Shown piece by piece: positions 17,401 through 58,612 of a DNA stretch of 64,000 nucleotides. This DNA comes from Azolla caroliniana. Its lineage: Eukaryota > Plantae > Polypodiophyta. The stretch is taken from contig JBHGNT010000006.1 of NCBI GenBank assembly GCA_043228905.1, positions 4,278,001 to 4,342,000 on the forward strand, given 5' to 3'. Each line of letters starts with the position of its first letter. The first letter of the stretch is position 1. The notes under the pieces are model-generated. The model was not told the origin of the DNA, searched no databases, and saw only the letters and a list, made by a program, of their open reading frames with translations. The translations under genes were made by a program, and so were the position numbers.

Positions 17401-17577
17401 CCTACACAAGATAATGTGGTAGACATATTCACCAAAGCTCTTCCACAAGAAAAGTTTGAAGCATTTCACAAAGCTTTAGGCTTATTTCCCTATGGGGGCT
17501 GATATGTTACTCCTTGTATGTGTTCACATCATTTGCTCTAGGGGGGTTTGTTACACTTGTGTTCCTCAACTAGATTT

Positions 17578-20500: not shown

Positions 20501-22439
20501 ATGTTGTTCAACTCTTGCTAGAGTTGAAGTTTGCGGGCGGTTGTGTTGGCGGCAAACATTTTCTTCAAGTTCTCCCACGCCTCTTTAGGCGTCTTGGCAT
20601 CTTGAATGTGGCTAAGCATGTGGTCATGGACACATGTTGCCAAGCATTACATTACTCGACTCGCCACTTGCTCCCATGTTGAGTAGTCGACGTTCTTTGG
20701 GTCGTGTTGATTTTCTTGTGCACCGTTCATGTAGCTCCAATACTCTTGGTGGACGAGGTATTGGTTCATCTTGTACTCCCAAGATGAATAATTGCTCCGG
20801 TCTAGCTTCTCACTAGGGAGTGAACTACCCATTTGTGTGTTCATGTTGATTGTAGTGTCTTCCGTTGTTGTGGTGTGGCTTAGCTAGAAGCGTGGCGTTG
20901 CGCAGACAAAAGATAAGGTGAAAGTGAGGAAGGAATCACTAAGATTATGGACAGAAGAGACGAAAGAGTAGAGATGAAGTGAATAGAGATCAACAGGATA
21001 TGGCAAGGTAGGATTTTTAAGAAATATGAGATATGGCAAGATAAGATATAAAATGATATTTCAAAACATGTAGGAAATTTATAATCATTATCATGAAAGA
21101 GTTACAAAATGGCTGCGAGCGTTGTTGGACCTTCGATTTTTGTCTCACAAAGTAACCACACTTCCCTTCCTTTATAGTAGACCATAATCTTCCCTTCAAA
21201 AATCTTTCGACGAGGATAAGACTCGAACCACCGCCCTTCAGTTGTGAGTTGAGGACCACAACCGCCAAGCTAGTTCTCCTCTAGTCTTTTAAAGATACCT
21301 CTCCCTCTTTGTCTATTATGATCTATTATAATTCTCTCTTGATCCAATATAATTAGATTCAATCTTATTTCTTGGTATCTTTGTGACTACATCCCCTTCT
21401 CTTTTTATAGCAAAGGGATAGTCTTGTATGTGGTCCATGTGGCGTATATGCAAATAGGTTCTTGCATGTGTGCTATATGGTGCACATGTAATACCAATGT
21501 TTACAATATTTAATGCTAAGTGATTGTGACTGAGGCTTTCAAAGTTGAGGTGGTGGGTTTGAGTCCTCTCTAGTGCATGTAATGCAATTGTTTTTCTTTT
21601 TATGGCCATTGTATATATTGTATACTATTTATATAGACTACATATTGTGAATGTTGGCTAATTGGTAACATGTGAGGCTCATAAGGCAGAGGTTGTTAGT
21701 TCAAGTCCTCTCTTGTCCTCATAATAGAGTGTTTTACTTTATTCACCTATATAATGTATAATATTATATAAAACACTATCAATATTCTTTTTATTTTAGT
21801 TATGTATTTATCTTATTGTAGACTTTTGATGTGAAGCTTTCATACTTCACGATATCATTTTACTTCACGTACACGTGCTACGTAGCGGCACTACGGTAGT
21901 GGGTAACCGGATTTTGTTGTTTGCGTCTCGAACACACAATCATGGAGAGTCGGGTGGGCTTAGTGGATGTGCTAAACCACACACTCTAATACCATGTTAA
22001 GAATTAGGTAATTAATTAAGGGTTAATTAGTACCTAATTATGTGATTAAGTTAAGCGAAAGATTATCTGATATGTGTGTGTGTGAGACGAAGACAGAGAA
22101 GAAGTTACACTTATGAACACAAAGACAAGATGGGGGATGATTAAGTAGAGTGTATATTAAAAAGCATCATAAAATACAAAAATACCCACAATGAGGTATA
22201 TATAGATCTCATGTGCAAGGGTGCACATGTGTGAGAAGAATATAGGTACTAAGGTGTAAGTCCTAAATTAAATTTACTTAGGAGTGGAGGATCTAGAATA
22301 TCCCACTTAAGTACCACTTAAGTACAAGGTCCTATTTAAGGATTTATAGTCAACACTTGGAACTAGATTCTATCTAGGAAACTACGAAGTTACATGGTTG
22401 ACTAAATAACTAAAACTAGTTGAGCTTTATATCTCAACA
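17578..22439 (-). mobile_element. Ty1/copia element B lacking RT/RNaseH, copy 1, nested in the LTR of A
   Basis: LTRs at 17578-18030 and 21995-22439. PBS TGGTATTAGAG is next to 21994 and PPT TGAGGGGGTG is at 18031-18040. Gag (EKLDRSNYSSW), protease (WFVDSS) and integrase remnants are present. The 5-bp TSD is decayed (GATTT/ACTTT). Confidence 0.9.
20866..21854 (-). mobile_element. Gypsy-type solo LTR with three tRNA-like modules
   Basis: Absent from the paralogous site at ~30658. Termini TGTTGTGG...TTCACGATA resemble the 60189 LTR reversed. The minus-strand TATA is at ~21402-21411. The decayed flanks read CCGT/TCAT. Confidence 0.8.
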
Positions 22440-22689
22440 ACTTTGATGTGAACCTTTCCCAACACATGGGCACTTTTTACTCTAGTGCTAGCTAGAGGTT
22501 TTTTCCCCATGTTACCACATACACGACTCACTCATATGTGGTGGTACTTAGTACTTAGGGATATATTTTTCAGCTCTTACTTGTTTTGTATTACTCATCA
22601 ATAGAGAGAGCTATTCCAACCATTGTCTTATTTGTGTGCTTCTCGTGTGTCTCTCACTCTTCCACACACACCCAACAAGGATGGTCTAC

Positions 22690-23300
22690 AGGTAGTTGTA
22701 ACATGTCAAAACGTTTAACAATGCAATGGCGTCTTCCTTGGGCTTGGTATAATTCCTTAAATGTGCTAAAACAATATTCACACCCACCATCGCTCAACTA
22801 GGTATCAACGTGGATATTCTCATTGGAAGCACTCTACTTGATATGTATGCAACATGTGGAAGTTTATGAGATGCGTATAAAATCTTCGATGGTCTGATAT
22901 CCCTCAAGGTGGGTGCCGATCACATGGCTTTACATGAAGGCATGCTCATACATGTTGAAATCATGGATCGAGGCATACAAAAGGACCTCTATACCATAAT
23001 GTTTTGCTTGGGTTTTACGTTAAATGTGGAAAATAGAGGATGCTTGGTCAAGTCTATCAACGAAGGATTCATGGCTAGCCATTGTCTTACACAAGATGGG
23101 TTGGGGAAGGATGTCACTTCCTTTCCATCTATTTTGTATTTTGTAGCTGATAATTTTTTCAAAACTAATGGAAGGATATGTTTTCTTGAAAAAAAAAAAT
23201 TCACACCCACTATCGGTTTGTAGTTGTTGAATGGATCTTTGTATTATATTTTCTCCTAATCGGATGCCATTTTTGAATGCTCAAGTTGCTTGATATTTGG
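22690..23300 (+). pseudogene. PLS-class PPR gene fragment, copy 1
   Basis: Reads DILIGSTLLDMYATCGSL*DAYKIFDGL, ALHEGMLIHVEIMDRGIQKDLY and FYVKCGK. These are typical PLS PPR motifs, here with stops and frameshifts. Confidence 0.78.
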
Positions 23301-24448
23301 TTTCTAAAAAGGTTATAACTTTAAAATGACTATAATCATCGACAAAGCTAATAAAATAATGAGATCTAGTTATTGATTTTGTAGGCGATTCATGTATTTG
23401 GCAGTGATGGACACATACGGTATAGGTTACTGATTTTGGATACTTACCATGGCCGAGGTAACAAAGACCTAAATCATTTGTACTCCTAGCTGGTAGTTAA
23501 GATTACTGCACAAACCCTTTTTATGTTTAATAACATTTTAATGGTCTATCCTTGCCAATTATTAAATAATCTTTGAGAGCAACAAAGAGGATTAGTTTGT
23601 GGAATGTTATTAACAGCCATATGCATTTGTAATCCCTATGGTTCATACTACAGATTACACGTATAGAGACAGAGTTTTCCAGGACCACATTCGCTAGTAT
23701 AGCAGGTTCTCATATAATTAAGCTCGTCCAATTTTAAGAAATCTGCATTACTAGGCTCTAAACTTTAATCTTTAACCTGGCTACAATGAGCAGTCAATTA
23801 ATATACCTTTGGCAACGAAGCCAGTGGCACCAGTTATGAAGATGTTCTTGTCATGGAGGAAAGGGATGATGGCAAGGCCCGGTGGAGAATGCAGGTCATG
23901 AGGGAGAGATTGAAAAGGCTCCAGGAGCTCCTCAGACCGCGAGCTACTGCACTTCCTACTTCTGTTAGGGTTGGGAAGTACTAGCTTTGAGCCCATGGTC
24001 TCCATGAAGAAATAAAGATTTATTGATGACTAGGGAATATGGAGAAGAAGAAAGAGAAGAGAGAGAGAGAGAGAGAGAGATAGATATAGATGATTCCTTT
24101 TGTTGCCTATGGCTTATATTGGGAAGGGGGCTAGGGTTCACATCCATTTATAAAGATGGGGGTACTCAATAATGGGGGCCAAATGAATTGATAGGTAGCT
24201 TACTAGCTATGGATGATTTGAAATCATTAAATATATACCCAATGGGTTGGGACACATATTGGAAATTTTAATTGAGTTTTACAAGTTGATGGCTAATATT
24301 AGTCATTATAATTGTGCACTGTATTTCTGATCTACAGGATGGTTTGAACCCATGATAATAGCGACATATTTAGGTGTACTCAACTATATTAGACATGGTC
24401 GGTTAATCCTCCAAGTGACCTCTCTCAAATTGAGGCTCAATCAGAGCT

Positions 24449-24787: not shown

Positions 24788-27369
24788 GATAAAGGCATTG
24801 TTTAAGTCAACCCATTATTGCAATCAATAGTCTGATGTGTTGTTAAGAAAGGAGCAGCGGACAAAATGGTGAACATCACAGAAAACATTTTTGGCGAGGA
24901 CCCGAGAAACCCTCATTTTATTATCTTACATACTTAGTGATAAATAGTGAGAATTACCTTTTTGGCCTTTCTCACTATCTATCAATCTCCCACTAAAGGC
25001 CAAAAATGTATGGTGCAATATACACATCAATGTATGGTGCAATATACACGTCAACATAATGGTGTGTGGAGCGCAAAAATAGAACACTCTTAGAGATGGC
25101 ATGATGTATGGTTAAAGGAAAGCATCTTCCTAACAAGTTTTGGATGGAAGCGGTTATGTGTGGAAATTATGTGTTGAATCATTGCCCTACAAAAGGATTG
25201 AGAATCATTACTCCATATGAGGCTTGGAATGGACATAAACCTATGGTTAGTCATTTGCGTGTGTTTGGTTGTTTGGCATATGCTCTTGTGCCATCACAAC
25301 ACCGTCACAAACTTGATGACAAGGCAAAGAAATGCATATTTGTTGGTTATAGCGCTAAAAGTAAGGGATATCGTTTGTACCATCCATTGACGGACACAAT
25401 TATTGTGAGTTGACATGTGGTATTGTTGAAAATTCAACTTTCCCTTTTCTTGAATGCGAAAAGCAACTAATAGTTAGCTCACAAGATGTGTTTGATACGC
25501 TGATGCCTTTGTTCCAAAATGGTGCGCTTGACTATGGACATGTAGAGCAGGCAAGTGAGTTTCAAAGTTCTGAAAATTTCCAGCAAATAAGTGCTGAAAA
25601 TGCACGAAATGTCCAACCAAACATGGCTAAACATTTGCAACAAAATGTGGCTGAAAATGAGCATGAAATTCAGCCCCCACATGATGTACATTTTGAAGAT
25701 GTATTACATAATGAGTGTATGTCTATTAAGAGTGCACAAACTATACCAAAGTGGCTGAAACAACAAATTGAGTGCACCTTTACTTGGTAGAACAAGATCA
25801 AGCTCTCAACATGCATCAAGTAATTTTATGGATTATTCTATTGTTGCAATAGTATGTAATGAGGAGCCACTTACTTTTGAAGATGCATGTGATGATCCAC
25901 ATTGGATGAGTGCTATGCAATCAGAAATGGATTCCATACATAAGAATGGTACTTGGGAGTTATGTGAATTGCCAAAAGGATCATTGAACACTACAAAACT
26001 AGAGTGGTTGTCAAAGGATATGCACAACAATATGGCATTGATTATGAGGAAACTTTTGCACCTACTTCACGCATGACTACCATTCGTACCATGGTTGCAT
26101 TGGCTGCCCAAAGAGGTTGGAAAGTGCATCAATTGGACATAAAAACAACTTTCTTAATTGGTGATTTGCAAGAAGAAGTTTATGTGAAGAAACCTCTTGG
26201 ATTTGCTATGAAAGAGAAAGAGCATATGGTTTGTCATTTGCATAAAACCTTGTATGGTCTAAAGAAAACTCCACGTGCATGGTATGGAAAAATCCATAAG
26301 CATTTGATTGTTCTTGGCTTCACATGTAGTCCGATTGAAAGCACACTTTTTATACGTAAAGATGGGGTTGATCATATAGTGCTTGTTCTCTATGTTGATG
26401 ACATACGGTTGACTGGGTCATGTGATACAAAACTTGATATTCTTATGGCTTATTTGCAACCTACTTTTGATGTCACTTATCTTGGTCTTTTGAGCTACTA
26501 TCTTGGCATCCAGTTTGTATCTGTTGAGGGGGAAATGGTTATGCATCAAGGAAAGTATGTTGAAAAACCACTTCAGCGTTTTGACTTTGAGGATTGCAAG
26601 TCGGTTTCTACACCTATGGAGATAGGATTTAGGTTCTTAGTTGAGGATTCTAGTGATGCATTTGATACTTCTCTTTATCAGCAAGCTGTGGGATGTCTTA
26701 TATATGCATGCAATACAAGGCCGGATATACAGTATGCAGTTTCCCAGTTGAGTCGATTAATGCATAGCCCTGGCAAGCAGTGAAACATGTGTTTAGATAT
26801 CTTAGAGGCACTTTGAGCTTGGGTCTCTTTTATGGCAGAGATACTCAGCCATGCTTGCTTGCTTTCACAGATAGTGATTGGGCTGGTTGTTACGATACTC
26901 ACGTGTCCACTAGTGGTAATTGCTTTTCCCTTGGAAAGTCATGTATATTTTGGTTGAGTAAAAAGCAACCTATAGTCGCGGCATCAAGTTGTGAAGCTGA
27001 GTACAAAGCAATTTTCACAACTACAGTGGAGTGTATATGGCTGAGACGCGTTTTGATGGATCTTTCCATGGAGATTGATGTTGCTACACATATTCTCACA
27101 GATAGTCAGAGTGCATTGGCTATTGCACGACTATATTATCACTATGTGAGAGAACGCCTTCATGCAAGAGATATTGATTTGGTATATGTACCTACACAAG
27201 ATAATGTGGCAGACATATTCACCAAAGCTCTTCCACGAGAAAAGTTTGAAGCATTTCGCAGAGCGTTAGGCTTATTGCTGTGTGGGGGCTGATCTGTCGC
27301 TCCCTGTATGTGTTCACATCATTCGTTGTAGGGGGGTTTGTTACACTTATGTGTTCCTCAAGTAGGTTT

Positions 27370-30300
27370 TGTTATTAAGAATTAGGGAATTAATTAAGGG
27401 TTAATTAGACCTAATTATGTGATTAAGTTAAGCGGAAGATTATCTGATATGTGTGTGTGTGTGTGTGTGGGAGACAGAGAGGAAGTTACACTTATGAAAA
27501 CAAAGACAAGATGGGGGATGATTAACTAGAGTGTATATTAAAAAGCACCATAAAATACAAAAATACCCACATTGAGGTATATATAGATCTCATGTGCAAG
27601 GGTGCACATGTGTGAGAAGAATATAGGTACAAAGGTGTAAGTCCTATATTAAATGTACTTAGGAGTGGAGGATCTAGAATATCCCACTTAAGTACCACTT
27701 AAGTACAAGGTCGTATTTAAGGATTTATAGTCAACACTTGGAACTAGATTCTATCTAGATAACTACGAAGTTACATGGTTGACTAAATAACTAAACCTAG
27801 TTGAGCTTGATATCTCAACACACCCCCTCAAGCTCAAGTGTGAAGTGACCGACATCCGGTTCTGCTTTCGGCATTGTCCGGCTTTTAACGTCAGCATTTT
27901 CATGGTAGTTTCGGTTCCTCCCCCTCAAGCCTGTGACGAAAGCTTGGGTTGATTGCTTTCAGTCATCGTTGGTCATGAGCCACTTCTGTAGAGATCTTGG
28001 TCTCTTGTTCGGTTGCTACCTTTATCGCGAAGGCATAATAATGATGGGCCATGTACTTGTTGTAGCCGAGCTGAGTGATAGGGTTCTTTTCTCTAGATGA
28101 GCGTCGAAGTTTTTCGCTCGCCAATGTGAGCACCTTCTTTACTCCGGGTGTCCGCATGATGGGTACACCAAAATCACTATCTAGTGAGTGAACTGACACA
28201 TCTGAATCACTGTCATCGGGGTGGTTGACTTCATATTCGGGCATCTTACCTTTGCCTTTGTCTGATCTAGGCACTAGTTGAGATGCGCTTGGAAGGCTTG
28301 AAGGCTAGTGTGGTCCACTTAGCTCGGTAGAGCTTGGATTGTCCTTTGGTAAAGGACATGTCTGAATATCATCCTACGAGTTGACGTTCAAGTCTTCCTC
28401 AGTCGGGTCGGGTGGAGCCGAATCATGCTTATACCAAGATGCTGATTCGTCGAAGACTACGTCTCAACTTACCCGAACCGCTCGGATCGAAGGGTTGAAG
28501 CACTTGTATGCCTTCTTCTTGGATGAGTATCCTACGAGGATACATTTCTCCATCTTCGCGTTGGGCTTCTGTCGGTTTTCATTCAGGATGCGTACATTCG
28601 CAATGCTTCCGAACACCTCGAGGTGCGATAGGATTGGCTTCCTTCCAACAAGGAGCTCGTATGGAGTTAGCTCATGCACTCCATTAGTGGTACATCAATT
28701 CATGAGATAGACGGTCGTTGATGCCGCTTCGGCCCAATAGAAGTTCGGCATGTGCTTGTCATGCAACATGGCCCGTGCTACCTCGATTATTTGCTAATTC
28801 TTCCTTTCGGCGGCTCCATTTTGTTGGGGTGTGTGTCAGCACGAGAACTCTCTCCAAATGCCTTCACCTTAGAGGTAGGAGAGGAATTCATTGGAGAAGT
28901 ATTCTTTGCTTCCATCCGATCATACGCATCAAATGTGCCGATTGGTTTCTTTTTCGACTTGTCTATTGAGGTTTTGAAAGTGGGAGAGCACTTTGTTCTT
29001 CTTCTTTATCGGAAAGATCCACATGTAGCATGAGTAGTCGTTGATGAAGGTGACATAGTATCGACATCCACCGATCGTCGGTGTTTGAGCCGGTCCCCAT
29101 ACATCCGAGTGTATGACGTCAAGTTGGCTTGTGCTTATGTAGCTCTCCTTCGGGAATTGGAGTCGATGTTGTTTGCCGAGTTTACATGCATTGCACACTT
29201 GGTCGACTCATTTCGACTCGAAGGCCTGGAGTCCGATGACGATTCCCTTTGATTGCATAGCTTGGAACCGTTGGAGGTTGATGTGGCCAATTCTCTTGTC
29301 CCACAACTCGATGCTTGTCCTGGTTTTGAGATCTTTGGCATACATGGCCGATTTCACTTCATTCGAATCAAGGATGAACATGGGACCGTCTCTCCGTCGC
29401 TTGGCTATGAGTCGGCCATCTTTCTCGATGAAACAACCTTCGTTGTTGAAGCAGACTTGCTCCACGATTTGACCGACCGAGACCAAATTCTTTGTTATTG
29501 TGGGCACGTGCAAGTTTGTTCGCCTTCTTTCCCGATTGGGACATTGCCGATGTGCCGAATGGGATGTGTGGTGTTGTTTCCCATCTCTATGAAGCCGGAT
29601 CGATTCTGCGTTCTTAAGTCACGAAACCACTATTGGTGTGACGTCATACGATGTGAGGCACCGGAGTCGACGAACCACAGGTCTTCCGAGTTGAAGGTGC
29701 TCATGAAGTCAGAGACCAACATAGAGTTCGCTCTATGTCTCATTACGAATAGTCCACCATCTTGGTGACGTAGTTTGTGACTTGTCATCTTGTTGAAGCT
29801 GACTCCTCTTCTTTCAGCACTCCTCTTCGCGATGGCTAATTTTGCCGCAAGAAGTGCAAGTCGTGGGTCACGTTTGCCGACCTTGTTCAGCATGGAAGCT
29901 CCCCCTTCTTCCGAAGGTAACTTCATGGCTTCCAACTTCTTGTCGAAGGTTTGAGTTCGCTTCATGAGATGGGACGAATTGACCTCTTCTACCGCTGCGA
30001 CCTCATCCTCGGCCATGTCCGAATTCGAGAAGAACATTTGTCCTTCTAACATCTTGGTCTTGGTTCGGATGTGGTTCTCTTAGACCAATAACATTGATTG
30101 GAGATCGAAGAACGAAGGTGGATTTTATCTCTCCAAGATTTCCGTCCTCAACAGGTTGAATCATTGTGCAGGGCCACCCAAGCATACTCGAACCATCTCG
30201 TCTTCGTCGACGTTAATGTTGATGGAACCAAGTGAGTCGCAAATGCTCTTGATCTTGACAGTGTAGTTCGACACAGACATATCTTAGTACCGAATGTTGT

Positions 30301-31837
30301 TCAACTTTTGCCGGAGTTGACATTTGTGGGCGGTCATGTTGGCGGCAAACATTTTCTTCAAGTTCTCCCACACCTCTTTAGGCGTCTTGGCATCTTGAAT
30401 GTGGCTAAGCACATGGTCGTGGACACATGTTCTCAAACATTACATTACTCAACTTGTCACTTGCTCCCATGTTCAGTAGTTGGCATTCTTTGAGTCAAAT
30501 CGATTTTCTTGTGCACCGTTCATGTAGCTCCAATACTCTTGGTGGACGAGGTATTGGTTTATCTTGTACTCCCAAGATGAATAATTGCTCCGGTCTAGCT
30601 TCTCACTAGGGAGCGAGCTACCCATTTGTGTGTTCATGTTGATTCTAGTGTCTTCCGTTTTGCTTTTCTTCCTTCGATCATGTACATGTGCTACGTAGTG
30701 ACACTATGGTAGCGGATAGCTGGATTTTGTTGTCGGTGTCTCGAACACACAATCACAGAGAGTCGGGTGGGCTTAGTGGATGTGCTAAATCACACGCTCT
30801 GATACCATGTTCAAGAATTAGGTAATTAATTAAGGGTTAGTTAGTACCTAATTATGTGATTAAGTTAGGCGGAAGATTATGTGATATGTGTGTGTATGTG
30901 TGTGTGAGAGGAAGACAGAGAGGAAGTCACACTTATGAACTCAAAGACAAGATGGGGGATGATTAACTAGAGTGTGTATTAAAAAGAATCATAAAATAAA
31001 AAAATACCCACAATGAGGTATATATAGATCTCATGTGCAAGGGTGCACATGTGTGAGAAGTGACAGGAATACACGCTCCCGATGAACAACGCTCGGCCAC
31101 AACCGAGCCTAGGACCAAAACACAGAAAACGGGTAATGAACGCACGACACAGTGAAGAGAAGAGTACACAGGATGTTAACGTGGAAAACCCAAACTAGGG
31201 AAAAACCACGGTAGCCCACAGACTGCAAACTATCACTATATCACAATGTACAATAGTAAAGCACCGAGGCAACGACCTCGAGCTTACTATCTTCGCCACA
31301 GGCGGCGGTTACAACAGAGGCAACGACCTCTTCCTCTCTCTCTCTCTCTGTACACAATTACACACACAAAAAAAACTTGCGCCAACAAGAGATGAATACA
31401 ACTACACTACACTAAGTTTGCCCTAAGTCATATTTATAATAATATGAGATTTTCGGCTATTTACAAATATAGCCCCTATGGACTCTCAGAAACATATTTA
31501 CGAATATGTCCGTTCATCCGGTGAGCACTCCTCACCAGGCCTGCATCATCCGGCTCTTGCCGGGCACTCATCATCCGAGGCCGAGTTTGCTCATCAACAC
31601 TGTTCTTCTCACTTCCCATCCGGAGGGACGTGTTTGCTAACAAGAAGAATATAGGTACAAAGGTGTAAGTCCTATATTAAATGTACTTAGGAGTGGAGGA
31701 TCTAGAATATCCCACTTAAGTACAAGGTCCTATTTAAGTCTTTATAGTCAACACTTGGAACTAGATTTTATCTAGGTAACTACGAAGTTACATGGTTGAC
31801 TAAATAAATAAACCTAGTTGAGCTTGATATATCAACA
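27370..31837 (-). mobile_element. Ty1/copia element B, copy 2
   Basis: LTRs at 27370-27820 and 30808-31837. A perfect iMet PBS TGGTATCAGAGC lies at 30796-30807. The flanks read GGTTT/GCTTT. The RT deletion is the same as in copy 1. Confidence 0.9.
31061..31642. mobile_element. Solo LTR (582 bp) inside the LTR of B copy 2
   Basis: TG...CA termini and a perfect 5-bp TSD AGAAG (31056-31060 and 31643-31647). The other three B LTRs show the empty site. Confidence 0.92.
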
Positions 31838-36670: not shown

Positions 36671-39600
36671 TCACAATTTGGAACCGCGTCCCTTCAATAC
36701 ATGCTTCCTTAAGCCCGGAATGTGTATCCTTTTTATGTAAGTTTCCCAATCAATGTCATTAAAATTGAAGCCAAATAATTGTTTTTCTTCCATTGATAGA
36801 TCTTCATGGAGTTGTCGCGTATTCGAATTGTCAAATCTATAAAAACATGACATGTTGGTTGATATTAGGATGAAATAGAGCATTGTTTAGTTATGTATTT
36901 TGTTGTATGAATTTCGATTGATATTTACCTCTACGAAAATGTATACAAGATTTTTAGTAGATAAACATATGTTTAAATTAACATAAACATACATGAGAGA
37001 ACATAAAACATGAAATCCAAACACACATGCATAGTGGAAACAATTAAATCTATTAATGTAGTTGTTTCATGCGTGTGCTAGATAATATCTTAGAAATAAG
37101 ACCTAAGAAGATGTCATAGATGTCATTATGTATAGAACCAATATATGGTCATGATATGCATCCAAGATGTGGTAAGGAGGACCTACCTTCCTCCATAGAA
37201 TGTGTAAGGGTAATAAAGATTCGCTAGTTTGAGTGTGCGCTCGTTTGCTTTCAGAGCCATTTGCTGGTACAATTTGGAGGACTTCGAATTTGAACTCTAG
37301 ACATGGTAAAGAACAATGTAGGTTACCATTTGTGGAATTGAGTAGAGTGGGTAATGTCCATGTTTGAATGAGCAAGAAAGTGATATCATATCATTGTGGT
37401 CTTTTTATAATACAATCAATATACTTGATTGCTTAGCATTTATGGATTTGGGTAGATAATGTCTATGATCGAATGACCAAGAGAGTGATATCATATCATT
37501 GTAGTGTTTTTATTATATAATCAATATAACTGTTTGTTTTTGCAAATATTCTTGATATGGCGTGTCCCATTTGTGTGTCATGGCATCTTGATTCTATACT
37601 AAATTGTATAAAATTATATTGCATTTTCTTATTTTAGGATTTCTAATCCAAATTTGGACATAGTATAAAATTCATCAAGGTGATGCATGGGGTCATTTGT
37701 GTTAAGTATGTAATTAGTTATCTTCAATTAGCAAAATTGGATATAATCAAATTCGTGAAGGGGATTTGATGACTTCATTTTTGTTCATTATATAATTAGT
37801 TACTGTGTGTTCTTAACGTGAGAGCAGAGACTAAACCAGTAATTAACGAATGTGATGACAGTAAGCTATCTGTCACACTAGTATGTAAAATACTTGCATA
37901 ATATAAAATTTATAATATGTACCTCGGATTTGGAATCAAGTTGAGATAATGATTCTGTATAGCTCTCCATATCTGGGTACAGTTGAAACTTCGAGTTTCT
38001 GATAGGTTTTCCACTATTGTCCAAGAAAGGCTGCTCTTCAAAATGTTCTTCCATGAATCGCTTAAAGCTTGACACAGGGAAAGGATTGACCGTGGAGGAT
38101 GCCACCTGATAAATTTCTAGTCCTGGCTTGCAAGCATGTTTCGCCATGGCAGCAAGCATTGCATTGGCCACCATATCCACAGGTACCTACATACACTCAT
38201 AAGCACGCCTTACACTCTGCATACATGCCAAAATGACCAATATAATGCATATATATGCCCTACCATGTAAGTAAAGCATTATACCAAAACTAGCTGGCTG
38301 GTTTTATATTGCATTCCAATTCTGCAGATTTTTGAATGTAAAGCTATAACAAGGAAGATATATATACTAACCACATCAATCAGACAATTCGGATCCATGG
38401 GGAAGCCTCGGAGTTGACCCTTTCCGTATGATATAAACAGGGGATCCATCATCCTTGTGTTCAACAAAAACAAAACAAAACAAATCCATGCATTACAGCT
38501 CAAGAGAATTGTTATGTTCCATGATGTTTTTCCTGCAAAAATATGTACCTGTTGCCTTCGATCCAGCCTGGGAACGGGTCTTGGAATGAGCTCTCCACTA
38601 TACTTGGCCTCACAATCACTGTTGGTAGATCATCTCTCATACTGTCTACAACCATCTCCCCCATTGCCTTTGTAAGCACATATGTGTCTTGCCAACCATA
38701 GTCACTTGCCCTATTAACATCATACATATATGAGAGCCATAGGTCATTTAATTGAACATTATTAAGTCGCAATTAGTTACTAATCTACGATTACGCCTAC
38801 CTTTCGAATCCTAACTCCTTCATTTTGATGGTAACATGGTTTTTGCTATCCTCCTCTTCTGTACTCCCAATGTTATTGAAAGCACTCAGATTTTGTTTGA
38901 TAAGTTTGGACTCGAAATCCACAAACATCTGAGGATGCAGATTCCCTTCCAATGTCTTGATGGTTGCATCGGCGATGTTGTATGCAGAATTGAAAGTTTT
39001 CTCATGTAGAAGGCCTTTACGTTTGCCATGGGCAAAAGCTGCATAATTTCACAAAAACCATGGGAATCAAAAGCTCTGCACATGCATACCAAGTAAATTT
39101 GAAGGTTTTGAATGGAGATTAGAATATGTCACCTGTAGACACATGCATGAAAAGTTGTAGGTGCAAACAACTTTTGGCCAATTCCGTAATTCTTCGAGGG
39201 CCTTCGGTGTTCATATTAAGCGCATAATCATACCTATCCAATATGATTGTGTTGTTATGCAGAATGTTTGAGCTCACTCACATTTAGGTCATGGACTAGG
39301 TAGGGAAGAGAGAAGAATCAATTGATCTATCCATTCTTAATCTCACCTTTCATCGAAGCCTGTGGTAGCAGCAGAATTAACAATTACATGAAGTTTGGTA
39401 GCAAGGGAGGTGAATGTGGAGGGATCCATGGCCAGCATTTCCTTTGTCATGTCACCGACCACCACGCTTATATTTTTCTCCATGAAAGCTTCATATTCTT
39501 CAGCATGGAGAGATCGCAAGCATTCGAATAAGTCGCTCCGCAAGATCTCCTCCTTCAGCCTGCGTATTGCGCAGGTTGCATCTTCTGCTTTGATGAGTAA

Positions 39601-41042
39601 GTAGAGCTGCCTCACGTTCGGTTGCACCCTCAGTATCTTCTCCACCAGGACTGCAAATCTTTGGAAGCATCAGCTCTTCTTCTTTTCTTTTAAAAAACTA
39701 CTACTACTACTACTACTCATCGTCTACGAATTATTCTACAGTAGGAGAGGAAAGATTATAATGTACTAAGCTTGATATTGTGCAAGGAATTTCGAAATTT
39801 TGAGATTGTAGAGCATTGTTAAGTGATTGATTAGTTCCCAACTACTAACTTGACTTGTAAATGGATATGTGTGATTGAGATTGCAAACAGATCAAATAGT
39901 TATTTCTCTCACCAATATCTTCGAGGACTGATCCTACAAGCCGACGTTTAACGTTTAGTATTTATTAGTAATTGTCAAATCAAAGGACAAGAAAGAATTC
40001 GGCAAGCTCAATGCCTAATTCTTTCTAGGACAAATCTTTATATTATGTTTTTAGGACAAATCTTTAGAGCCATCTGCTCTTCTTCTTTTCTTTTAAAAAA
40101 CTACTACTACTACTACTAATCGTCTACTAGTTATTCTACAGTGGGAGAGGAATGATTATAATTGTACTAAGCCTGATATTGTGCAAGGAAATTCCATTTT
40201 ATCAATGTTTTGAGTTCCCAACTAATAACTTAATGTGGAATATCATTAATGTGGTACGCAATACGAATCACATGTTATGCTTAATATATAGGTACTGAGC
40301 TTATGGTGTTTTATAATGATTAGGCTTCGCAGCCCAAAGAAATTGCGGTGAGTTCTGGACTTTAATTTTTGTGAAGGAAAGAGCGTTGTATAACAAATCT
40401 GAATAGTACTAGCACTGGAGGACATATAGCCTTATTATGCACATAATATATGTATATGTGCACTTTTAAATTAAATGGTCCCCCCTATCACATTGTAAAT
40501 CTGGATAGGGGAGCATTAGCAGCAATGTGATAGGGGAGCATTAGCATCACTTTAATCCTGACATGGGAAGAAGGATGGGAGAATGATTAAAGCATGGCCA
40601 ATAATGAGTTTGGGCATTGATAATGATGGGATTGGTGGAGCAGAGAATCATAACCTTTGGCAATGAAGCCAGTGGCACCAGTTATGAAGATGTTCTTGTC
40701 ATGGAGGAAAGGGATGATGGCAAGGCCCGATGGAGAGTCCTCTCGCTCATACTGCGGCTCCTGAGTCTGCAAGGAGCTGCTGCATATGAATGTTGTTGTT
40801 GATGATGATGATGATGCGGTATAGTTGTTGCTTGTGTTAGGATTGGGAAGTACTAAACTCGGCCTAATTCCACCAATATTGGCAGCACCCAGTTTTCTTG
40901 CCAGTAATGGATCATGATGAAGATGATGACCATAGTTAATGCTGCAGGGCTTCATACATCTGGCTGCATGAATCAAAAAAGCATGGCTGCGTTGGGGATT
41001 AATACGCATTTGATATGGGGAGCTAATTAACTGTGAGCCCAT
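36671..41042 (-). CDS. FAR: Fatty acyl-CoA/ACP reductase, MS2/FAR2-like (copy B), 9 exons, 604 aa, C-terminal SKL
   Basis: Exons 41042-40655, 39650-39347, 39233-39133, 39038-38801, 38710-38549, 38453-38372, 38186-37923, 37296-37187 and 36836-36671. All are GT-AG and in phase, totalling 1815 nt. Motifs: TGATGFIAK (NAD(P)H binding), [18 protein letters not shown], catalytic [33 protein letters not shown], and a C-terminal male-sterility domain ending [11 protein letters not shown]. Confidence 0.93.
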
Positions 41043-44883: not shown

Positions 44884-47800
44884 TCACAATTTGGAACCAC
44901 GCCCCTTCAATACATGCTTCCTTAAGCCCGGAATGTGTATCCTTTTTATGTAGGTATCCCAATCAATGTCATTGAAATTGAAGCCAAATACTTGTTTTTC
45001 TTCGGTTGATAGATCCTCATGAAGTTGTTGCACATTTGAATTGTCAAATCTATAAAATCAGGAACATGTTGGTTGATATGGAGGTATTAGGATGAAGTAC
45101 ATCATTGTTCAGTTATATATTTTGTTGCATGAATTTCTATTGATATTTACCTCTAAGAAAATGTATACAAGATTTGGTGTTAATAGACAAACTTATGATT
45201 AAATCAAGCATTGTGCATACGTGAGAGAACGTAAAACACAAAATCCAAACACACATGCATAGTGGAGACAATAAAATCTATTAATGTATTTGTTTCATGT
45301 GCATGCTAGATAATATCTTATAAATAAAAGCTAAGAAGATGTCATTGTGTATAGAACCAATGTATATTCACGATATGTAACCAAGACGTGGTAAGAGGGA
45401 CTTACCTTCCTCCATAGAAGGTGTAAGGGTAATAAACATTCGCTATTTTGAGTGCGTGCTTGTTTGCTTTGAGAGCCATTTGTTGGTACAATTTGGAGGA
45501 CTTTGGATTGGAACCCTAGACATAGGAAAGGACAATATTGCTTAGCATTTGTGGAATTGAGTAGATAATGTCCATGATTGAATGAGCAAGAAAGTGATAT
45601 CATATTATTGTTGTGTTTTGATCATACAATCAATATAATTGATTGATTAGATTTATGGAATTGAGTAGATCATTGTCCATGATTGAATGACACAGACAAT
45701 GAGTGATATCATATCATTGTAGTGTTTTTATCATACAATCTATATGATTGTTTGTTTTGGCAAAATAAAAAGTAAGAGAATGAAAAATGGGCTACAAGAG
45801 AAGAAGAGAGTCATGAGACAAATGGCTATTCTTGATTTGGCGTTTCCCATTTGTGTCTCATGGGCGTCTTGATTCTGTATTAAATAAGCTTATAGCATTT
45901 TATTTATTCTAGGATTTCTAATCCAAAATTGGATATAATAAAATTCGTGAAGGAGAGACATTTGTGTTCAAGTATATAATTAGTTATTGTTATAAACAAA
46001 ATTGGATATAATAAATTTCGCTAAGGGGATTTATGGCGACATTTGTGTTAAGTATACAATTAGTTATTATAATTAGCAAAATTGGATATAATCAAATTCG
46101 TGAAGGGGATTATTCATGGCATCATTTGTGTTAACTGTATAATTAGTGACAGTAAGCTATCTTTCACACTGGTGTCTAAAATACAGCATAACATAAAACT
46201 TGTAACGTACCTCGGATTTGGAATAAAGTTGAGATAATGATTCTGCATAGCTCTCCATATCTGGGTACAGTTGAAACTTCGAGTTTCTGATAGGTTTTCC
46301 ACTGTTGTCTAAGAAAGGCTGCTCTTCAAAATGTTCTTCCATGAATCGCTTAAAGCTTGACGCAGGGAAAGGGTTGACTGTGGAGGATGCAACCTGATAA
46401 ACCTCTAGTCCTGGCTTGCAAGCATGTTTCGCCATGGCAGCAAGCATTGCATTGGCCACCATATCCACAGGTACCTACATACATCATGTTCCCGATCAGG
46501 GTCTCGTAAGTATGGATTACACTTCGCATACATGCCAGAATGAACAATATAATGCATGTATGCATTATTGCCATGTGAGCAAAATCACTATACCAAAACT
46601 GGCTGGCTGGTTTGATATTGCAATCCGATTCTGTAGATGTTGTTGAGATGTAAATCTATAACAAGGAGTATATATACTAACCACATCAAGCAGACAATTT
46701 GGATCCATGGGGAAGCCTCGGAGTTGACCCTTTCCGTATGATATAAAGATGGGATCCATCATCCTTGTGTTCAAGAAATCAAAACAAATCCATGCATTAC
46801 AGCTCAAGAGAATTGTTATGTTCATGATGTTTTTCCTGCAAAAATATGTACCTGTTGCCTTCGATCCAGCCTGGGAACGGGTCTTGGAATGAGCTCTCCA
46901 CTATACTTGGCCTCACAATCACTGTTGGTAGATCATCTCTCATACTGTCGATAACCATCTCTCCCATTGCCTTTGTAAGAACATATGTATCTTGCCAACC
47001 ATAGTCACTTGCCCTATTAACATCATACATATATGAGAGCCATAGTCATTTAATTGAACATTATTAAGTCGCAATTAGTTACTAATCTACGATTACGCCT
47101 ACCTTTCGAATCCTAACTCCTTCATCTTGATGGTAACATGCTCTTTGCTGTCCCACTCTTCTGTAGATCCAATCTCAGTAATAGCACTCAGATTTTGTTT
47201 GATAAGTTTGGACTCGAAATCCACAAACATCCGAGGATGCATAATCTCTGCCATTGTCTTGATGGTTGCATCAGCGATGTTGTATGCAGAATTGAAAGGT
47301 TTTTCATGTAGAAGACCTTTACGTTTACCATGGGCGAAAGCTGCATTCACAAAAAACAATGGGAATTTAAAAAAAAACTCTGCACATGCATACCAAGAAG
47401 TAAATTTGAAGGTTTTGATGGCGATTAGAATATGTTACCTGTAGACACATGCATGAAAAGTTGTAATAATTCTTCTAGGGCCTTCCGTGTTCATATTTAG
47501 CGCATAGTCATACCTATTCAAGATGATTGTTTTGTTTTTAGCAGAATCATTGAGTTCACTCATATTATGCCATGCAATAGGGATTATAGAGGTAAATCGA
47601 TGGATCTATCCTTAATCTCACCTTTCATCGAAGCTCGTGGTAGCAGCAGAATTGACAATTACATGAAGTTTGGTTGCGAGGGAGGCGAATGTGGAGGGAT
47701 CCATGGCCAGCATTTCCTTTGTCATGTCACCGACCACCACACTTATCTTTTGCTCCATGAATGCTTCGTATTCTTCGGCATGGCGAGATCGCAAGCCTTC

Positions 47801-49334
47801 GAATAAGTCACTGCACAAGATCTCCTCCTTTAGCCTGCGTTTTGCGCAGCTTGCATCTTCTGCTTTGATTAGTAAGTAGAGCTTCCTCACGTTCGGTTGC
47901 ACCCGCAGTATTTTCTCCACCAGGACTATCAATTGCACAATACAGTATGCATTTTTATATGATATTAATTAGGACAAATCTTTGGAGCATCTGCTCTTTC
48001 TTTCTTCTGTTTTTTGAAACTACTACTACCCATCGTCTACTAGTTAGTTAGTCCACAATGGAGTGGAAGAGTTTATGTACAAAAACTTGATATTGTGCAA
48101 GGAAATTCGATTGTATCAATGTTTTGAGTTTGTAGAGAATTGTTAAGTGATTGATTAGTTCCCAACTAATAACTTGACTGGTAAATTGGATACGTATGAT
48201 GGAGATTGTAAAACAGATAAATAGCTATTTCTCAGGTCCAATATCTTCGAGGACTATAGAGTGCTAACATCCTAGAAGGTGAGGATTGCACAAACCTTTT
48301 TAATAATTACGTTTTAACATTTATTATATTCATTAGTAATTGTCAAATCGAAGAACAAGAAAGACTTAGTGCATGCTTTAGTGATTTATCTCATAATGTG
48401 GAATATTGTTAATGGTACGCAATTCTAATCACATGTTATGCTTAATATATATAGGTACTGACTGAGCTTATGGTGTCTTCTAATGATTAGGCTTCGCAAA
48501 CCCAAAGAAATTGTGGTGAGTTCTAGACTTTAATTTGTGAATGAAAGAGCGTTTATAACAAATCTGAATAACATCGGAGCACATAATAGCGTTACTCTGA
48601 AAATGGTCCCCGATCACATCGTAAATGTGGAGAGGAGGAGCATATGCCACAATTAGAAGGCTCTAGTATGAAGCATCACATTAATCCTGACATGGGAACG
48701 AGGACTGGAGAATCATTTTAAAGCATGGCCTATAACGACTTTGAGCATTGGTAATATGTGGGAGGGGATTAAAATGATGATGGGATTAGTGGAGCAAGTC
48801 AATCAAATTACCTTTGGCAACGAAGCCAGTGGCACCAGTTATGAGGATGTTCTTGTCATGGAGGAAAGGGATGATGGCAAGGCCCGATGGAGAGTGATCC
48901 GGCTCATAATGCAGGTCTTGAGGCGCCAAGAGTTGCTGCGTGCCACTAGGTCTCTGCAAGAAGGAGGGATCAAGGAGCACCTGAGTCTGCAAGGAGCTGC
49001 CGCATGATATTGATGATGATGATGATGATGATGCAGAGTTAGGATTGGGAAGTACTAAACTCCGCCTAATTCCACCAATGTTGGCAGCAGAGTTAGGATT
49101 TCTTGCCATTAATGGATGCTCCTCATGATGATGATGATGATGACTATCACCATTTTTGTCGCCTGCATGAATAATCAGTAATGCACCACCACCATAGTTA
49201 ATGCTGCAGGGCTTAATATATCTGGGTGCACGAATACTAGCATGATTACTTTGGGGATTGAGACGCATTGGATATGGGGATCTAATTAACTTCAGTGTGT
49301 AGTTGTAAGACTGTGAGCCCATGATGGCGTCCAT
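44884..49334 (-). pseudogene. FAR: FAR copy A, 9 exons, frameshifted in exon 3
   Basis: Exons 49334-48812, 47925-47622, 47513-47439, 47340-47103, 47013-46852, 46763-46682, 46474-46211, 45515-45406 and 45049-44884. Exon 3 is 75 nt against 101 nt in copy B, which gives a premature TAA at 47327-47325. All other exons are open, and the gene ends KGRGSKL*. Confidence 0.85.
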
Positions 49335-53104: not shown

Positions 53105-53192
53105 TGTTAGAGACAAAGTCGTCTATGCGGAAGATCAAGAAGCATTCGAGTCTGTTCTGTACCTGCGTATGACAGTTTCTAGGTCGTTGCAC

Positions 53193-53223
<31 letters not shown>

Positions 53224-56200
53224 CACAAAAGACTCTATATTTCATAAAGCAACAAAATACAAACACCCCACCTTACAAAAAGGTTACAAGGTCAATATAT
53301 ATAGTGACCGACTTAGGGCAACTACCCTTTATGCTAATTACACAAATGGCCTAAAGGGATAGTGTGAATACGTCCATTATACACTTGTATTCGACACTCC
53401 CCCGTAATGGGCGTATACATGGGTTATCTAAGATTACAGGTATAAACTTAGGTTCTCGGACATATCAGTTTGTTCGAGTCGGCAGGGTCCGAAGGCGGAA
53501 GACCGAACTGGTCGGGTTGGAAGTGTCGAAGCCGATCATTAAGGAGCTGATGTCGGTTGTCGGGAACCATCCTGCGCTGTGTCCGACTCTAACCGGACTG
53601 GTTTGTCGTTACGCCCATCTGATGTCGAAGAGACCGAAAGCGGTCTGCCGAAAGACACTTGGTCATTCCATCTGCGACATTGTCGGTTGTGGATATTTTC
53701 TCTAGACCGATTTTCCCTGAAATGACGCAGTCCCGAACGAAGTGATATCGAACGTCGATATGTTTGGAGGCGTTGTGGTGAACCGGATTTTTTGACAAGG
53801 CAACAGCACCTTGACTGTCGCTGTAGACAACTGGAGCCGAGTCATGGTCGACTTGCCGAAACGTGTGCGCCAGCCGGCCGAGCCACAAAGCTTCTTTTGC
53901 AGCGTCGGACGCAGCTACATATTCTGCTTCAGTCGTTGAGGTCGTTGTGCACTCCTGAAGTTTCGACTTCCACGAAATTGCTCCATTGCCGAATTTGAAG
54001 CAGTATCCGGTTGTTGATTTCCGACTGTCTATACAGCCGGCGAAGTCCGAGTCGGTGTAACCGACTACGCCTGAGGTTCGGTTCGGACCGAAAAGAATGC
54101 CGTGGTCTTTTGTGCCAGCCAGATATCTGAACACATGCTTGACTGCGTTCCAATGCGATCAGCCAGGATTGTGCATAAATCTGCTAACGACTCCTACGGC
54201 ATGAGAAATATCAGGCCGTGTCGCGACCATCAGGTACATAAGGGAGCCGACTGCCGGTGCATACGGTACCGACTTCATATTTTCCCCCTCCGAACCGGAT
54301 GTCGGGCAGTCTCGCTGAGAGAGCCGAAGATTCATGGGGAGCGGGGTTGAAGCAGATTTGGCTGATTGCATGTTGAAGCGTTCCAAGACACGTCCGATAT
54401 AGTCGGTCTGAGACAAAAAGAGATGTCGTTTATCGCGATGCCGACTAATCTTCATGCCGAGTATGTGTCGTGCCGGACCGAGGTCCTTCATGGCAAACTT
54501 CAACCGCAGTTGCCGAATGAGATCGGCAAGTTCGCCCGCGTGGCGTCCAGAAATTAGCATGTCGTCCACGTAAATGATGAGGAAGATGGGTGATCCATCT
54601 TGAGCTGTGTTGGTGAAGAGACAATGGTCCTCATCGCTTTTTGAGAAGCCGATCGATTGGATGAAGTCGTCGAACTTCTTGTACCATTGTCGCGGTGCCT
54701 ATTTGAGGCCGTATAGACTCTTCCTGAGTCGGCAGACTAGATGTTCTTGGCCAGTCGCCACGAAGCCTTTTGGCTGCTCCATATAAATTTCCTCGTCAAG
54801 ATCACCATGGAGGAAGGCTGTTTTGACATCTAGCTGAATCAGCTCCAAGTTGTCGGCTGCCACTACGCCGAGTAGGAAACGAAGGGTTGTCATTTTCACC
54901 ACTGGTGAAAAAATCTCGTCGAAGTCGACGCCATATTCTTGTCGGAAGCCCTTCGCAACTAATCTGGCCTTGTACTTTGGGGTGGTCGAATCAGACGTCT
55001 CTTTTAGTCGATAAACCCACTTGCAAGGAAGAGCACATCGGTTCCTAGGTAATTCGACCAGATCCCAAGTCTTGTTTGCCCGGATGGAGTGCATTTCCGA
55101 CTCCATCGCCAGATGCCAGGTGGCTGAATCGACAGATGTCGATGCTTCTTCGTAAGACGTCGGTTCGCCGGCGTCGGTGAAGAAAATTCCAGGAGAATAC
55201 CTCTCCGGAGGTTGCGACAGTCTCTCGGATCGTCGAGGTATGATTGGATTGGTCGCATCGGGTATCGAGGTCGGATGGTCCGAAAGCGAATCATTCGGCT
55301 GTGCCGAGTCGGAGTTGTCCGAGTCGGGAGTGTAAGGTTCAGCTACCCGTGAAGCTGACCGTGTGTTAAGAGCGGGGCCTTCTTGAAGGGTCGGCACATC
55401 GGAAAATGTTACCCTTCGGACTTCGGTCGGTGTTTCGACTGATGGAGTCATAGCCGACTCGTTGAACACAACGTCCGAACTTCGAACGATTTGTCTGCGT
55501 TTGGGGTCCCAGAGTCGGTATCCCATTTCGCCGTCTGATCCATATCCAAGGAAAATGCATTTCCTGGACCGAGGTGCAAGTTTTCGGCGATCATCTTTCG
55601 GAATAAGGGCGTACGCCTCGCATCCGAAGATCCTCAGCTTGTCGTAATTCGGCTTACTGCCGATCCATAGTTCCTGAGGAATTTGAAGTCCTAGAGGTCT
55701 ACTTGGCGACATATTGATTATGTGTACTGCCGTGAGTAGAGCCTCTGCCCAGAAGCCATCCGACAGTCCGGAGTGTTGGAGCATGGAAACTATCCGTTCT
55801 TGGATTGTCCGATTCATTTGTTCTGCAATCCCATTTTGCTCCGGACTGTGTGGTGCCGTAAATTCACGTCGGATGCCGCGTTGTCGGCAGAATTTGACGA
55901 ATTCCTCGGATTTGAACTCTCCCCCATTGTCAGTCCGAAAGCATTTCAGTTTTCGGTCGGTTTGATTTTCTACCATAGCGAGCCAATCGGAGAAGATCGA
56001 GAAGACACGATCTTTGGTGCGAATTGGATAAGCCCACACCTTTCGAGTCGAATCGTCAATAAAACTGACGAAGTAAGAGGCACCGCCGAGAGACTGATGC
56101 GGCATTGGGCCACAGACGTCCGAGTGGACTAAATCGAGAGGTCTCGTTTCTCTTGGTGCTGATGTCGGGTGTGATGCGGCTGCTTGTTTGCCATACTGGC

Positions 56201-58406
56201 AATGCTCGCAGAATTGATGGTCGGAGAAGGAGAGTTTAGGGATGTATCCGGCTCTAGATAGGTGCGTAATGCCGGCCTTGCTGAGGTGTCCTAATCTTCT
56301 GTGCCATAGTGATGACACAGGAATATCCACCAAAAACAGGTTACCCTCTCTGAGCGTAACGTGTAACGGATACAGTGAGTGTATCTTGGGTCCTCTAGCA
56401 AGCAGGAGGTTCCCCCTGTGGAGTGTCCACCCTCCCGAAGAAAAACCGGCACGAATGCCGTCTTCATCTAGTTGTCCGACTGAGATCAATGGCCTTGAGA
56501 GCTCGGGTACATGTCGGACATTGTGAAGTACAAGTGTAGAGCCACCTGCAAGGTTGAGCTCTACTGTGCCGATTCCAATGATGTCGCAGTGTTGCGAGTT
56601 GCCGACTCGAACTGAGTCGGAGTGACGGATCGTATATTGCCGAAATTGGGATCGATGAGGAGTCACGTGAAATGACGCACCCGAATCTAAGAGCCATGTG
56701 CTCGATTCTTCAGTCGTGAGCAGAACTTCTGATCCGACTGGATTTTCGATTGATAGTATATTCGGGTCGTTTGGTAGCACATCAGCTGAGAAGCTGACGT
56801 AATTGATCTCCTCATGCCGGCCACTCTTCTTGTCTGATTTCTGAGACTTGTCGTTCTTGTTCTTGAGTGCGCGGCAGTCGGCTTTGATGTGTCCGGGTTT
56901 CTTGCAGTAGTTGCAGATTCGGTTATCCCGTGACTGGCTCCGTCTTCGCTGATTGTTCGGCGGTCGTGAGGAATCTCTTCCTCTTATGTTCGATCGGTCT
57001 GTCGAACCTTGTACTACATAAGCGTCGTCTGTTGAGTCTTTGGCGAAAGACTTTCTCCGAGCTGCTTCGGTCAGGATTGCGCTCGTGACTTCGGAGTATT
57101 TGACAGCCGTGGTTGACGCGTTGCACACGGTTGTGACGAAAGTTTCCCATGATGAGGGAAGGCTACTCATGAGTATCATTGCTCTGAGTTCATCCTCGAT
57201 TTCCGTCCCCTGAGATGAGATTTGGGAGCTTATGCTTTCGTACTCATTAAGGTGTGCTTGAACCGAATCGGATTCTTTCATCCGCAAGTTGTAGAGGCGC
57301 CGGATCAGAAACATCTTCGTTGCGGCGACCTTCTTTTCGTAAGTGTCCGACAGTGTTTTCCACAGTTCGAATGCTGTCGTACACGATTGCACCGTAAAAT
57401 ATACCGATTCCGATAGGTGCATCCGAATCGTGGCGCGGACGATTCTGTCCAGCTTCTGCCACTCAATTGGTTTGTATCCTTCTGGAGGTTCTTCATTTTC
57501 GATGGGATCGATTTGCCCCTTGACTATGAGATAGTCCTGCATTTGCTCCTTCCAGAAGTTAAAGTTCGATCCATCGAACTTTCGTAGACTCATTTCTGAC
57601 GAGCCGGATGTTGATGCCATCAAATTCGGTTTCGGTTGACGAAGCTCGGTTCGGAGTTGACTACGAACCTTGTTGGAGTGCAGCCGGTTGGCTCACCCGA
57701 TATCGTTCTAGTCGGATTTGAACCCGAGTCGGTTCGGCTTCGGATATATGTACTGTTGAACTTGCTCGAATTGACTCCGGTAACTTGAGGGACAGAACCG
57801 ACTGGTCTTCCCGAATGTTGCCGAGTCGGAGTGAGCCCGGTTCGCTTCGGATATGTATGCCGAATACCGATTATTGAAACCGATTGTCTGGACCGATTTT
57901 GCTTCGGGTGACTGCAGCGACGAGAGAGACGGATCCAACTGATCCTCCAGAATGTCGATCAGCCGGATGAAGCACGAATTGGGGTTGTTGTCTTGAGACC
58001 GATCTGCACCGAGTGGTTACAATGAGCGGCGAGCAGCGTTTGTTGACCTCTTCGGATGCCGTTTAACCGAGTGGAGCACGATCGTGTCAATGTTGCACAA
58101 GGGGATTTCACCTCGAGCGGTTACGATCACAAGGAACAGAGTACAACCGGCTGGCTTACTCCAAGCGAAGATGATCTAACGCGATGAGATGCAAGCCTCG
58201 TTTTTTTTTTCTTCTTCTCTCTTCTTCGAATGACGCAAGAAACCGAATGCTGTGCAGGCTGAGACGACGGCCGACAGCGGGTTGAAGGACCGAATGCTGC
58301 GCAGGCTCTGATACCAGATGTTAGAGACAAAGTCGTCTATGCGGAAGATCAAGAAGCATTCGAGTCTGTTCTGTACCTGCGTATGACAGTTTCTAGGTCG
58401 TTGCAC

Positions 58407-58439
<33 letters not shown>

Positions 58440-58612
58440 CACAAAAGACTCTATATTTCATAAAGCAACAAAATACAAACACCCCACCTTACAAAAAGGT
58501 TACAAGGTCAATATATATAGTGACCGACTTAGGGCAACTACCCTTTATGCTAATTACACAAATGGCCTAAAGGGATAGTGTGAATACGTCCATTATACAC
58601 TTGTATTCGACA
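53105..58612 (-). mobile_element. Full-length young Ty1/copia retrotransposon
   Basis: Near-identical LTRs at 53105-53396 and 58319-58612, 5-bp TSD CTACC, iMet PBS at 58305-58316 and a PPT next to 53397. Confidence 0.97.
53589..57623 (-). pseudogene. Copia gag-pol polyprotein, single frame with two nonsense codons
   Basis: CCHC knuckle (CNYCKKPGHIKADC), protease LLDSGAS, integrase (HSDVCGP, RTDNGGEF), RT YVDDML and RNaseH YTDSDFAG. In-frame TAG at 54699-54701 and TGA at 54159-54161. Confidence 0.93.

Follow-up and report, generated by a model that had tools for sequence, protein, structure and literature searches.

Within a window of 64,000 nucleotides (nt) of Azolla caroliniana DNA, the whole stretch analyzed and the frame for all coordinates given here, four copies of a fatty acyl reductase (FAR) gene were recognized, and the only whole one, copy C (41042-36671, minus strand), ends in the tripeptide SKL, a canonical type 1 signal for targeting to peroxisomes (PTS1). 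Judging from the sequence, we lean toward the reading that PEX5 imports the copy C product into peroxisomes, either as its sole destination or beside plastids, and that in peroxisomes it would reduce acyl-coenzyme A (acyl-CoA) to fatty alcohol. Neither form of this reading is likely when taken singly: dual plastid-peroxisome targeting is a minority prospect, and a mainly peroxisomal product a slightly smaller one.

Copy C comprises nine exons with a 604-amino acid frame that is free of internal stops and GT/AG borders at all eight introns, and since this model ends SKL-stop it bears out the intact SKL-ending FAR proposed in a preliminary description of this DNA. Exon 1 (40655-41042) contains the start codon, a leader of 105 residues (acid-poor, basic, with a poly-Ser stretch) and the dinucleotide-binding motif GxxGxxA at residues 122-128, and intron 1 behind it is spanned by two contigs of the transcript run described below. 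It is followed by exon 2 (39347-39650), exon 3 (39133-39233), exon 4 (38801-39038), which is divergent and shorter than in fern FAR2, exon 5 (38549-38710) with the catalytic YxxxK at residues 354-358, exon 6 (38372-38453), exon 7 (37923-38186), exon 8 (37187-37296) and exon 9 (36671-36836), which closes with the 12 nt for SKL and the stop codon (36682-36671); exons 3, 6, 7, and 8 rest on the gene model and contigs. Pfam matches, all above the curated cut-offs, were obtained on three of the six exons scanned, of which exons 2 and 5 match NAD_binding_4 (PF07993) and exon 9 matches Sterile (PF03015), and GxxGxx(G/A) as well as YxxxK, the two FAR motifs, are intact as they are defined in PMC9783961. 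In domains and motifs copy C is an alcohol-forming FAR, with a predicted activity. Intron 1 also harbors a 140-nt internal duplication (39654-39793 and 40057-40194, 90% identical) beside the acceptor of exon 2.

The C-terminus reads GRGSKL-stop, and the last 12 residues place basic and non-polar residues upstream of SKL and include no acidic residue; SKL withstood inhibitory patterns in the residues upstream of it, with the exception of an all-acidic pattern (PMC9542071). An AlphaFold2 model of the fern homolog P0157, built from a 53-row alignment, has a mean predicted local distance difference test (pLDDT) score of 75.6, and the solved FAR structure 7eoz matches this homolog with an E-value of 1.6e-153. 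In the model the last helix ends at residue 718 of 726 and the final eight residues are coil, the last three of them under pLDDT 50. By homology with P0157, whose tail is equal in length, SKL is predicted to sit on a free tail of eight residues. A membrane anchor of the animal FAR1 type was also considered and rejected, because the tail has no hydrophobic segment among the top five hydropathy windows; the highest 19-residue value (1.69, at residue 421) lies inside the core.

The closest full-length relatives of the copy C protein are fern FAR2 proteins (50-54% identity), compared to 44-49% for seed-plant FAR2, and in two rapidly built trees (44 and 25 rows, picked by hand from the proteins available) it falls inside the fern FAR2 group with a support of 96-99 in the Shimodaira-Hasegawa-like approximate likelihood ratio test, the only support calculated. 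The MS2/FAR2-type ancestry suggested earlier is thus upheld. Some tree rows carry the labels Pinus and Ginkgo, taken from the identifier prefixes. The stem branch of the copy C clade is 0.74-0.77 changes per column long, and the ratio of nonsynonymous to synonymous substitution rates (dN/dS) over exons 2-9 is 0.25-0.35 in all six pairs among copy C, its neighbor copy D, and two loci from a metagenome scan, L002 and L004. Given the nesting among fern FAR2 proteins, the long stem and these ratios, we take copy C to be a functional, fast-evolving, lineage-specific and tandemly expanded offshoot of fern MS2/FAR2 under purifying selection. Word searches with single exons, weak ones that yielded 5 and 27 candidates, returned no close full-length relative.

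Transcript evidence comes from the contigs of run X1, which was chosen by its species label and whose RNA nature was guessed, yet the contigs are spliced; they can prove presence, not absence. These contigs span all eight introns of the copy C model, and none of the 33 aligned contigs is at least 99% identical to copy C, which indicates that they derive from sister copies; no contig of a second run, X2, aligned to the gene. Three of the five X1 contigs aligned at the gene end cross the stop codon, with no difference listed at 36671-36682, and the unchanged SKL-stop 12-mer is legible in two of them, as inferred from the smallest listed distance to the aligned end (31 letters), the third being illegible there. 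SKL is the true end of spliced sister-copy transcripts. The confirmation of the stop codon in RNA that the preliminary description called for is thereby provided for sister copies and not for copy C itself; the transcripts with a different last exon that it named as a danger did not appear, as no alternative last exon was seen in the X1 splice joints. Another X1 contig agrees with copy D at all 12 listed exon-4 differences and continues into exon 3 for 99 letters, where no gap is listed; copy D thus looks whole in that sample.

The scan of metagenomes yielded 19 loci, of which 11 are close to copy C (78-94% identical in exon 9, with intron and 3′ flank in common). Their C-terminal ends are SKL in five, SKV in three, SRM in one and SNM in one, and one locus, L011, has lost the tripeptide. 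SKL, SKV, SRM, and SNM all stand on a list of experimentally validated PTS1 (PMC3427985, Table A1), hence a validated tripeptide is retained in 10 of the 11, loci that are closely related to one another; indeed, L002-L006, with differences at 0-5 of 165 nt, are non-independent. Exons 2-9 are intact in L002-L004. The last exon of L008 (421-640) and that of L007 differ at 2 of 165 nt, both within the tripeptide (SKV vs. SRM), and the 3′ flanks of the two loci part immediately past the stop, a pattern that suggests recombination between paralog ends. Several open reading frames of the metagenome assemblies (P0001, P0002, and P0278-P0284) translate the TGA that follows SKL or SNM into Trp, which is a gene-calling artefact on plant DNA.

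Outside these loci, the tails of other plant FARs were surveyed in two sets. A search with a fern homolog gave 120 FAR2 matches, 115 of them with a readable end, and the fern-group tails among them (SAM, SII, SSV, STSS, and SSVQ) are in three of five cases equal in length to the SKL tail, which makes it probable that the Ser and the stop position are ancestral. Because ordinary fern FAR2 proteins lack SKL, the tag is confined to the offshoot clade of copy C within the FAR2 group; of the earlier proviso that SKL might be absent from related orthologs, this much came true, while 10 of the 11 close loci have kept a PTS1 tripeptide. The wider survey started from 150 FAR representatives at 50% clustering. 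In 34 of them the protein's own end follows directly upon the FAR domain; the remaining 116, being fragments, fusions or sequences with unaligned ends, were set aside. Five of these 34 divergent representatives end in [SA][KR][LMI] (Turnera SRI, Silene SRL, Lupinus SKM, Papaver SKL, and an unnamed SKI), the Papaver end being present in all three cluster members, while internal tail windows contain the pattern in 0 of 340, 510, or 850 cases. The binomial P of five in 34 is 2e-6 under tail composition and 0.003 under a 3% background, in a test devised after the tails had been viewed. A single clade of the five representatives plus the window protein is rejected by the approximately unbiased test (p-AU 0.000125, LG+G4), and the three representatives with intact motifs (Papaver, Lupinus, and Silene) are leaderless, with only 2-10 residues. 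These data are suggestive of a repeated gain of PTS1 in divergent FAR paralogs. Among further proteins, P0095 ends in SRV and a FAR of the lycophyte Diphasiastrum in TRL, both on the validated list; of the lycophyte FARs P0069 and P0021, Diphasiastrum ends in TRL and Selaginella in FRL, and the Selaginella models are nearly leaderless.

Several observations weigh against import into peroxisomes, and the main uncertainty is the leader. The preliminary description had missed this plastid-like N-terminal extension of 105 residues, and with it plastid-only and dual targeting become real rivals. The chief rival is a plastid-only enzyme with a cryptic PTS1, in which the leader would function as a transit peptide and take hold of the protein before PEX5 does, SKL would be inert and descended from an ancestral KGRG-S/T-K-L-like tail, and plastid acyl-acyl carrier protein (acyl-ACP) would be reduced as by MS2, DPW, and FAR6; we regard this as a serious if tentative possibility. 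It is favored by a retained leader of usual FAR2 length (104 such leaders of seed plants have a median of 107 residues) that is poor in acidic residues, with one Asp+Glu and six Arg+Lys in the first 50 residues against seed-plant medians of 1 and 7. The first ATG lies in a strong context, and Met is absent between residues 30 and 186, with none available downstream ahead of the core, which makes a leaderless isoform by leaky scanning unlikely. Moreover, N-terminal signals usually or often dominate PTS1, yeast Mrp7p being an example of an unused PTS1 (PMC9549241), and Arabidopsis PGL3, the plant precedent for dual targeting to plastids and peroxisomes, is needed mainly in plastids (PMC11103113). 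The tail itself supplies further arguments on the same side. No canonical PTS1 is found in the 115 ordinary FAR2-type tails, including the five readable fern-group tails, three of which offer an S-x-x end of equal length, and conifer-type tails (TKLE, TKMV, TKVV, and TKLEA) carry one or two residues beyond T-K-L/M/V, which shows that K followed by L, M, or V may occur non-terminally and weakens the case for residues chosen for targeting. In L011 a stop at the Ser codon has removed the tripeptide. By hand count, the SKL codons allow 21 single base changes that alter an amino acid, and 15 of these lead to a tripeptide on the published lists (PMC3427985; PMC9542071), and SKV alone therefore says little; at most the two-change variants SRM and SNM are informative on PTS1 retention. 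As for the divergent FARs, two of the five PTS1-ending representatives are defective models (one without the nucleotide-binding start, one without YxxxK); restricted to the three intact of 34 the P-value is 0.001-0.08 depending on the background, and pooled with orthologs (5 of 146) it is 0.003-0.45. Finally, the X1 evidence of expression concerns sister copies of copy C.

What speaks against a plastid-only enzyme is that both two-change variants remain on the validated list, that unrelated leaderless plant FARs likewise end in a canonical PTS1, and that the leader varies from 39 residues in copy B through 105 in copy C to 146 in copy D, all neighboring copies. The leader of copy C is also low in Ser+Thr, with 5 in the first 50 residues against a median of 10 (5-95% range 6-14) in the 104 seed-plant leaders. 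Together with the large in-frame leader indels and the frequent amino-acid changes in the tail among the close loci, this low content would suit a protein with no effective signal at either end, both ends drifting, that is cytosolic or associated with the endoplasmic reticulum (ER) like CER4-type FARs. We consider this quite improbable, as plants respond strongly to SKL when it ends a free tail, and without a working leader import by PEX5 would be the default. It is more improbable still that copy C, as part of an array in decay, is itself a duplicate that is silent or dying, its targeting irrelevant. Three of the four window copies are indeed broken or remnants, but the frame of copy C is open and its splice sites canonical throughout, its dN/dS against D, L002, and L004 is 0.25-0.29, and sister copies with an identical end are spliced. 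As an observation apart, residues 13-21 of copy C (41006-40980) and their counterpart in exon 1 of copy D form a nonapeptide, R-[IL]-x5-H-A, that resembles the prototype RLx5HL of the peroxisomal targeting signal type 2; it includes a proline, has Ala as its last residue and does not occur in copy B, hence it may be due to chance.

Under the favored reading of peroxisomal import, alone or shared, the following scenario can be proposed. A sporopollenin-type plastid FAR2 would have been duplicated, and in the offshoot an S-x-x tail inherited from the ancestor would have become a PTS1, while the plastid leader may have come under looser constraint, giving the different lengths in the three neighboring copies. 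PEX5 would bind the SKL tail and bring the protein into the matrix, alone or in competition with plastid import, and there acyl-CoA would be reduced to primary alcohol with NADPH, the acyl-CoA probably drawn from the pool that feeds beta-oxidation rather than from plastid acyl-ACP. The alcohols might serve surface or specialized lipids and not the spore wall; substrate, chain length and product use are here inferred from the family chemistry and the compartment. Ether-lipid synthesis seems an unlikely role in a land plant. More broadly, and as a conjecture that we hold possible without thinking it probable, land plants may have a third class of FARs, in which paralogs were repeatedly re-routed to the peroxisomal matrix (in this fern clade, independently in Papaver, Lupinus, and Silene, and perhaps in lycophytes) and turn beta-oxidation acyl-CoAs into fatty alcohols, the fern array being caught mid-switch with its leader decaying and its PTS1 kept. 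Such a FAR in the matrix would give the lipid metabolism of plant peroxisomes a reductive branch that can reach chain-shortened acyl-CoAs. It could account for unusual alcohols of ferns and of other lineages, and it would be a source of native enzymes for engineering fatty alcohol production in peroxisomes; the leaderless FARs of Papaver, Lupinus, and Silene are free of the dual-signal problem.

The array around copy C is largely degenerate. The SKL-stop 12-mer, TCCAAATTGTGA, occurs four times in the window, always on the minus strand, at 4221, 14590, 36671, and 44884, which are the four terminal-exon copies reported before, and the residues preceding SKL do differ as then stated (RGHG, KGLG, and KGRG). 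Copy D (44884-49322, minus strand) has nine exons, each 89-97% identical to that of copy C, and ends in SKL-stop, and in the window it is frameshifted by a 26-nt deletion in exon 3 (47513-47439 region); the deletion is seemingly missing from the D-type X1 contigs and reflects an allele difference or an assembly feature. Copy B is a remnant (14590-23996, minus strand) of exon 1 (23996-23807), exon 8 (about 15223-15112) and exon 9 with Copia insertions between them; a 1-nt deletion in exon 9 puts SKL out of frame, exons 2-7 were not found in the window, and in exon 1 about two thirds of the leader have been lost in frame while the start codon and the start of the core are retained. Copy A is a remnant (4221-4386, minus strand) consisting of the last exon, which ends RGHGSKL-stop, together with an exon-5 fragment at 10022-9960. 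Within the last 108 nt, 10 of the 97 12-nt windows are invariant across the four copies (naive P 0.044, picked post hoc), so we rejected the four-copy invariance of the 12-mer as a sign of selection. The conservation of SKL across four copies emphasized earlier thus shrinks to a weakly unusual invariance among two remnants, A and B, a frameshifted copy D, and copy C. Exon-4 fragments lie 3′ of several copies (3359-3139 and 35631-35574 in the window, 3230-3272 in L005, and 2529-2571 in L006), and suggest an older degenerate copy carried within the tandem unit. The rest of the window includes a 5.2-kb Copia block duplicated at 15662-20866 and 25484-30659 (89.5% identity, one of them inside copy B), a young Copia retrotransposon at 53105-58617 with 99% identical long terminal repeats and stop codons in its coding region, a probable LINE-like element represented by a reverse-transcriptase fragment at 58925-60238, and, at 61120-64000, a probably Gypsy-type retrotransposon that encodes an integrase zinc-binding domain and runs past the window end.

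Plant FARs have been described only in the plastid and the ER according to a 2022 review (PMC9783961), in agreement with the preliminary description, and the words “peroxisom” and “fern” do not occur in the excerpt of its text. A literature search, mostly of titles and abstract openings and with subscription papers largely outside its reach, found no report of a peroxisomal land-plant FAR. With the plastid FARs AtMS2/FAR2, rice DPW, maize Ms25, AtFAR6, and moss PpMS2-1 (PMC9783961), the copy C protein shares the two domains, the motifs, the clade, the N-terminal extension and a conserved C-terminal stretch, and it differs in its long stem, its shortened exon-4 and C-domain segments, its tandem expansion and its canonical PTS1. 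The ER-type FARs (CER4/FAR3, FAR1/4/5, and the wheat TaFARs) have the reaction family in common with it, with acyl-CoA use likely, whereas they belong to another clade (34-36% identity to two such proteins) and have no leader; two CER4-like proteins, of Papaver and Lupinus, also end in SKL or SKM. Arabidopsis PGL3, a different enzyme, is a model for coexisting signals that make two organelles reachable (PMC11103113). Mammalian FAR1 offers peroxisome-linked fatty alcohol synthesis, as proposed for copy C, and is tethered by a C-terminal membrane anchor (PMC9113324; PMC9549241), as had been stated earlier, unlike copy C with its lack of a C-terminal hydrophobic segment. A parallel in end and proposed location, and likened by these alone, is the FAR of the cryptophyte alga Guillardia theta, which bears a PTS1 (SRL end) and is peroxisomal when expressed in a diatom (PMC9244630); it combines a C-terminal PTS1, as in copy C, with the matrix import that we propose for copy C. 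Its assigned role is ether-lipid synthesis together with AGPS, and the excerpt reports no leader issue (PMC9244630).

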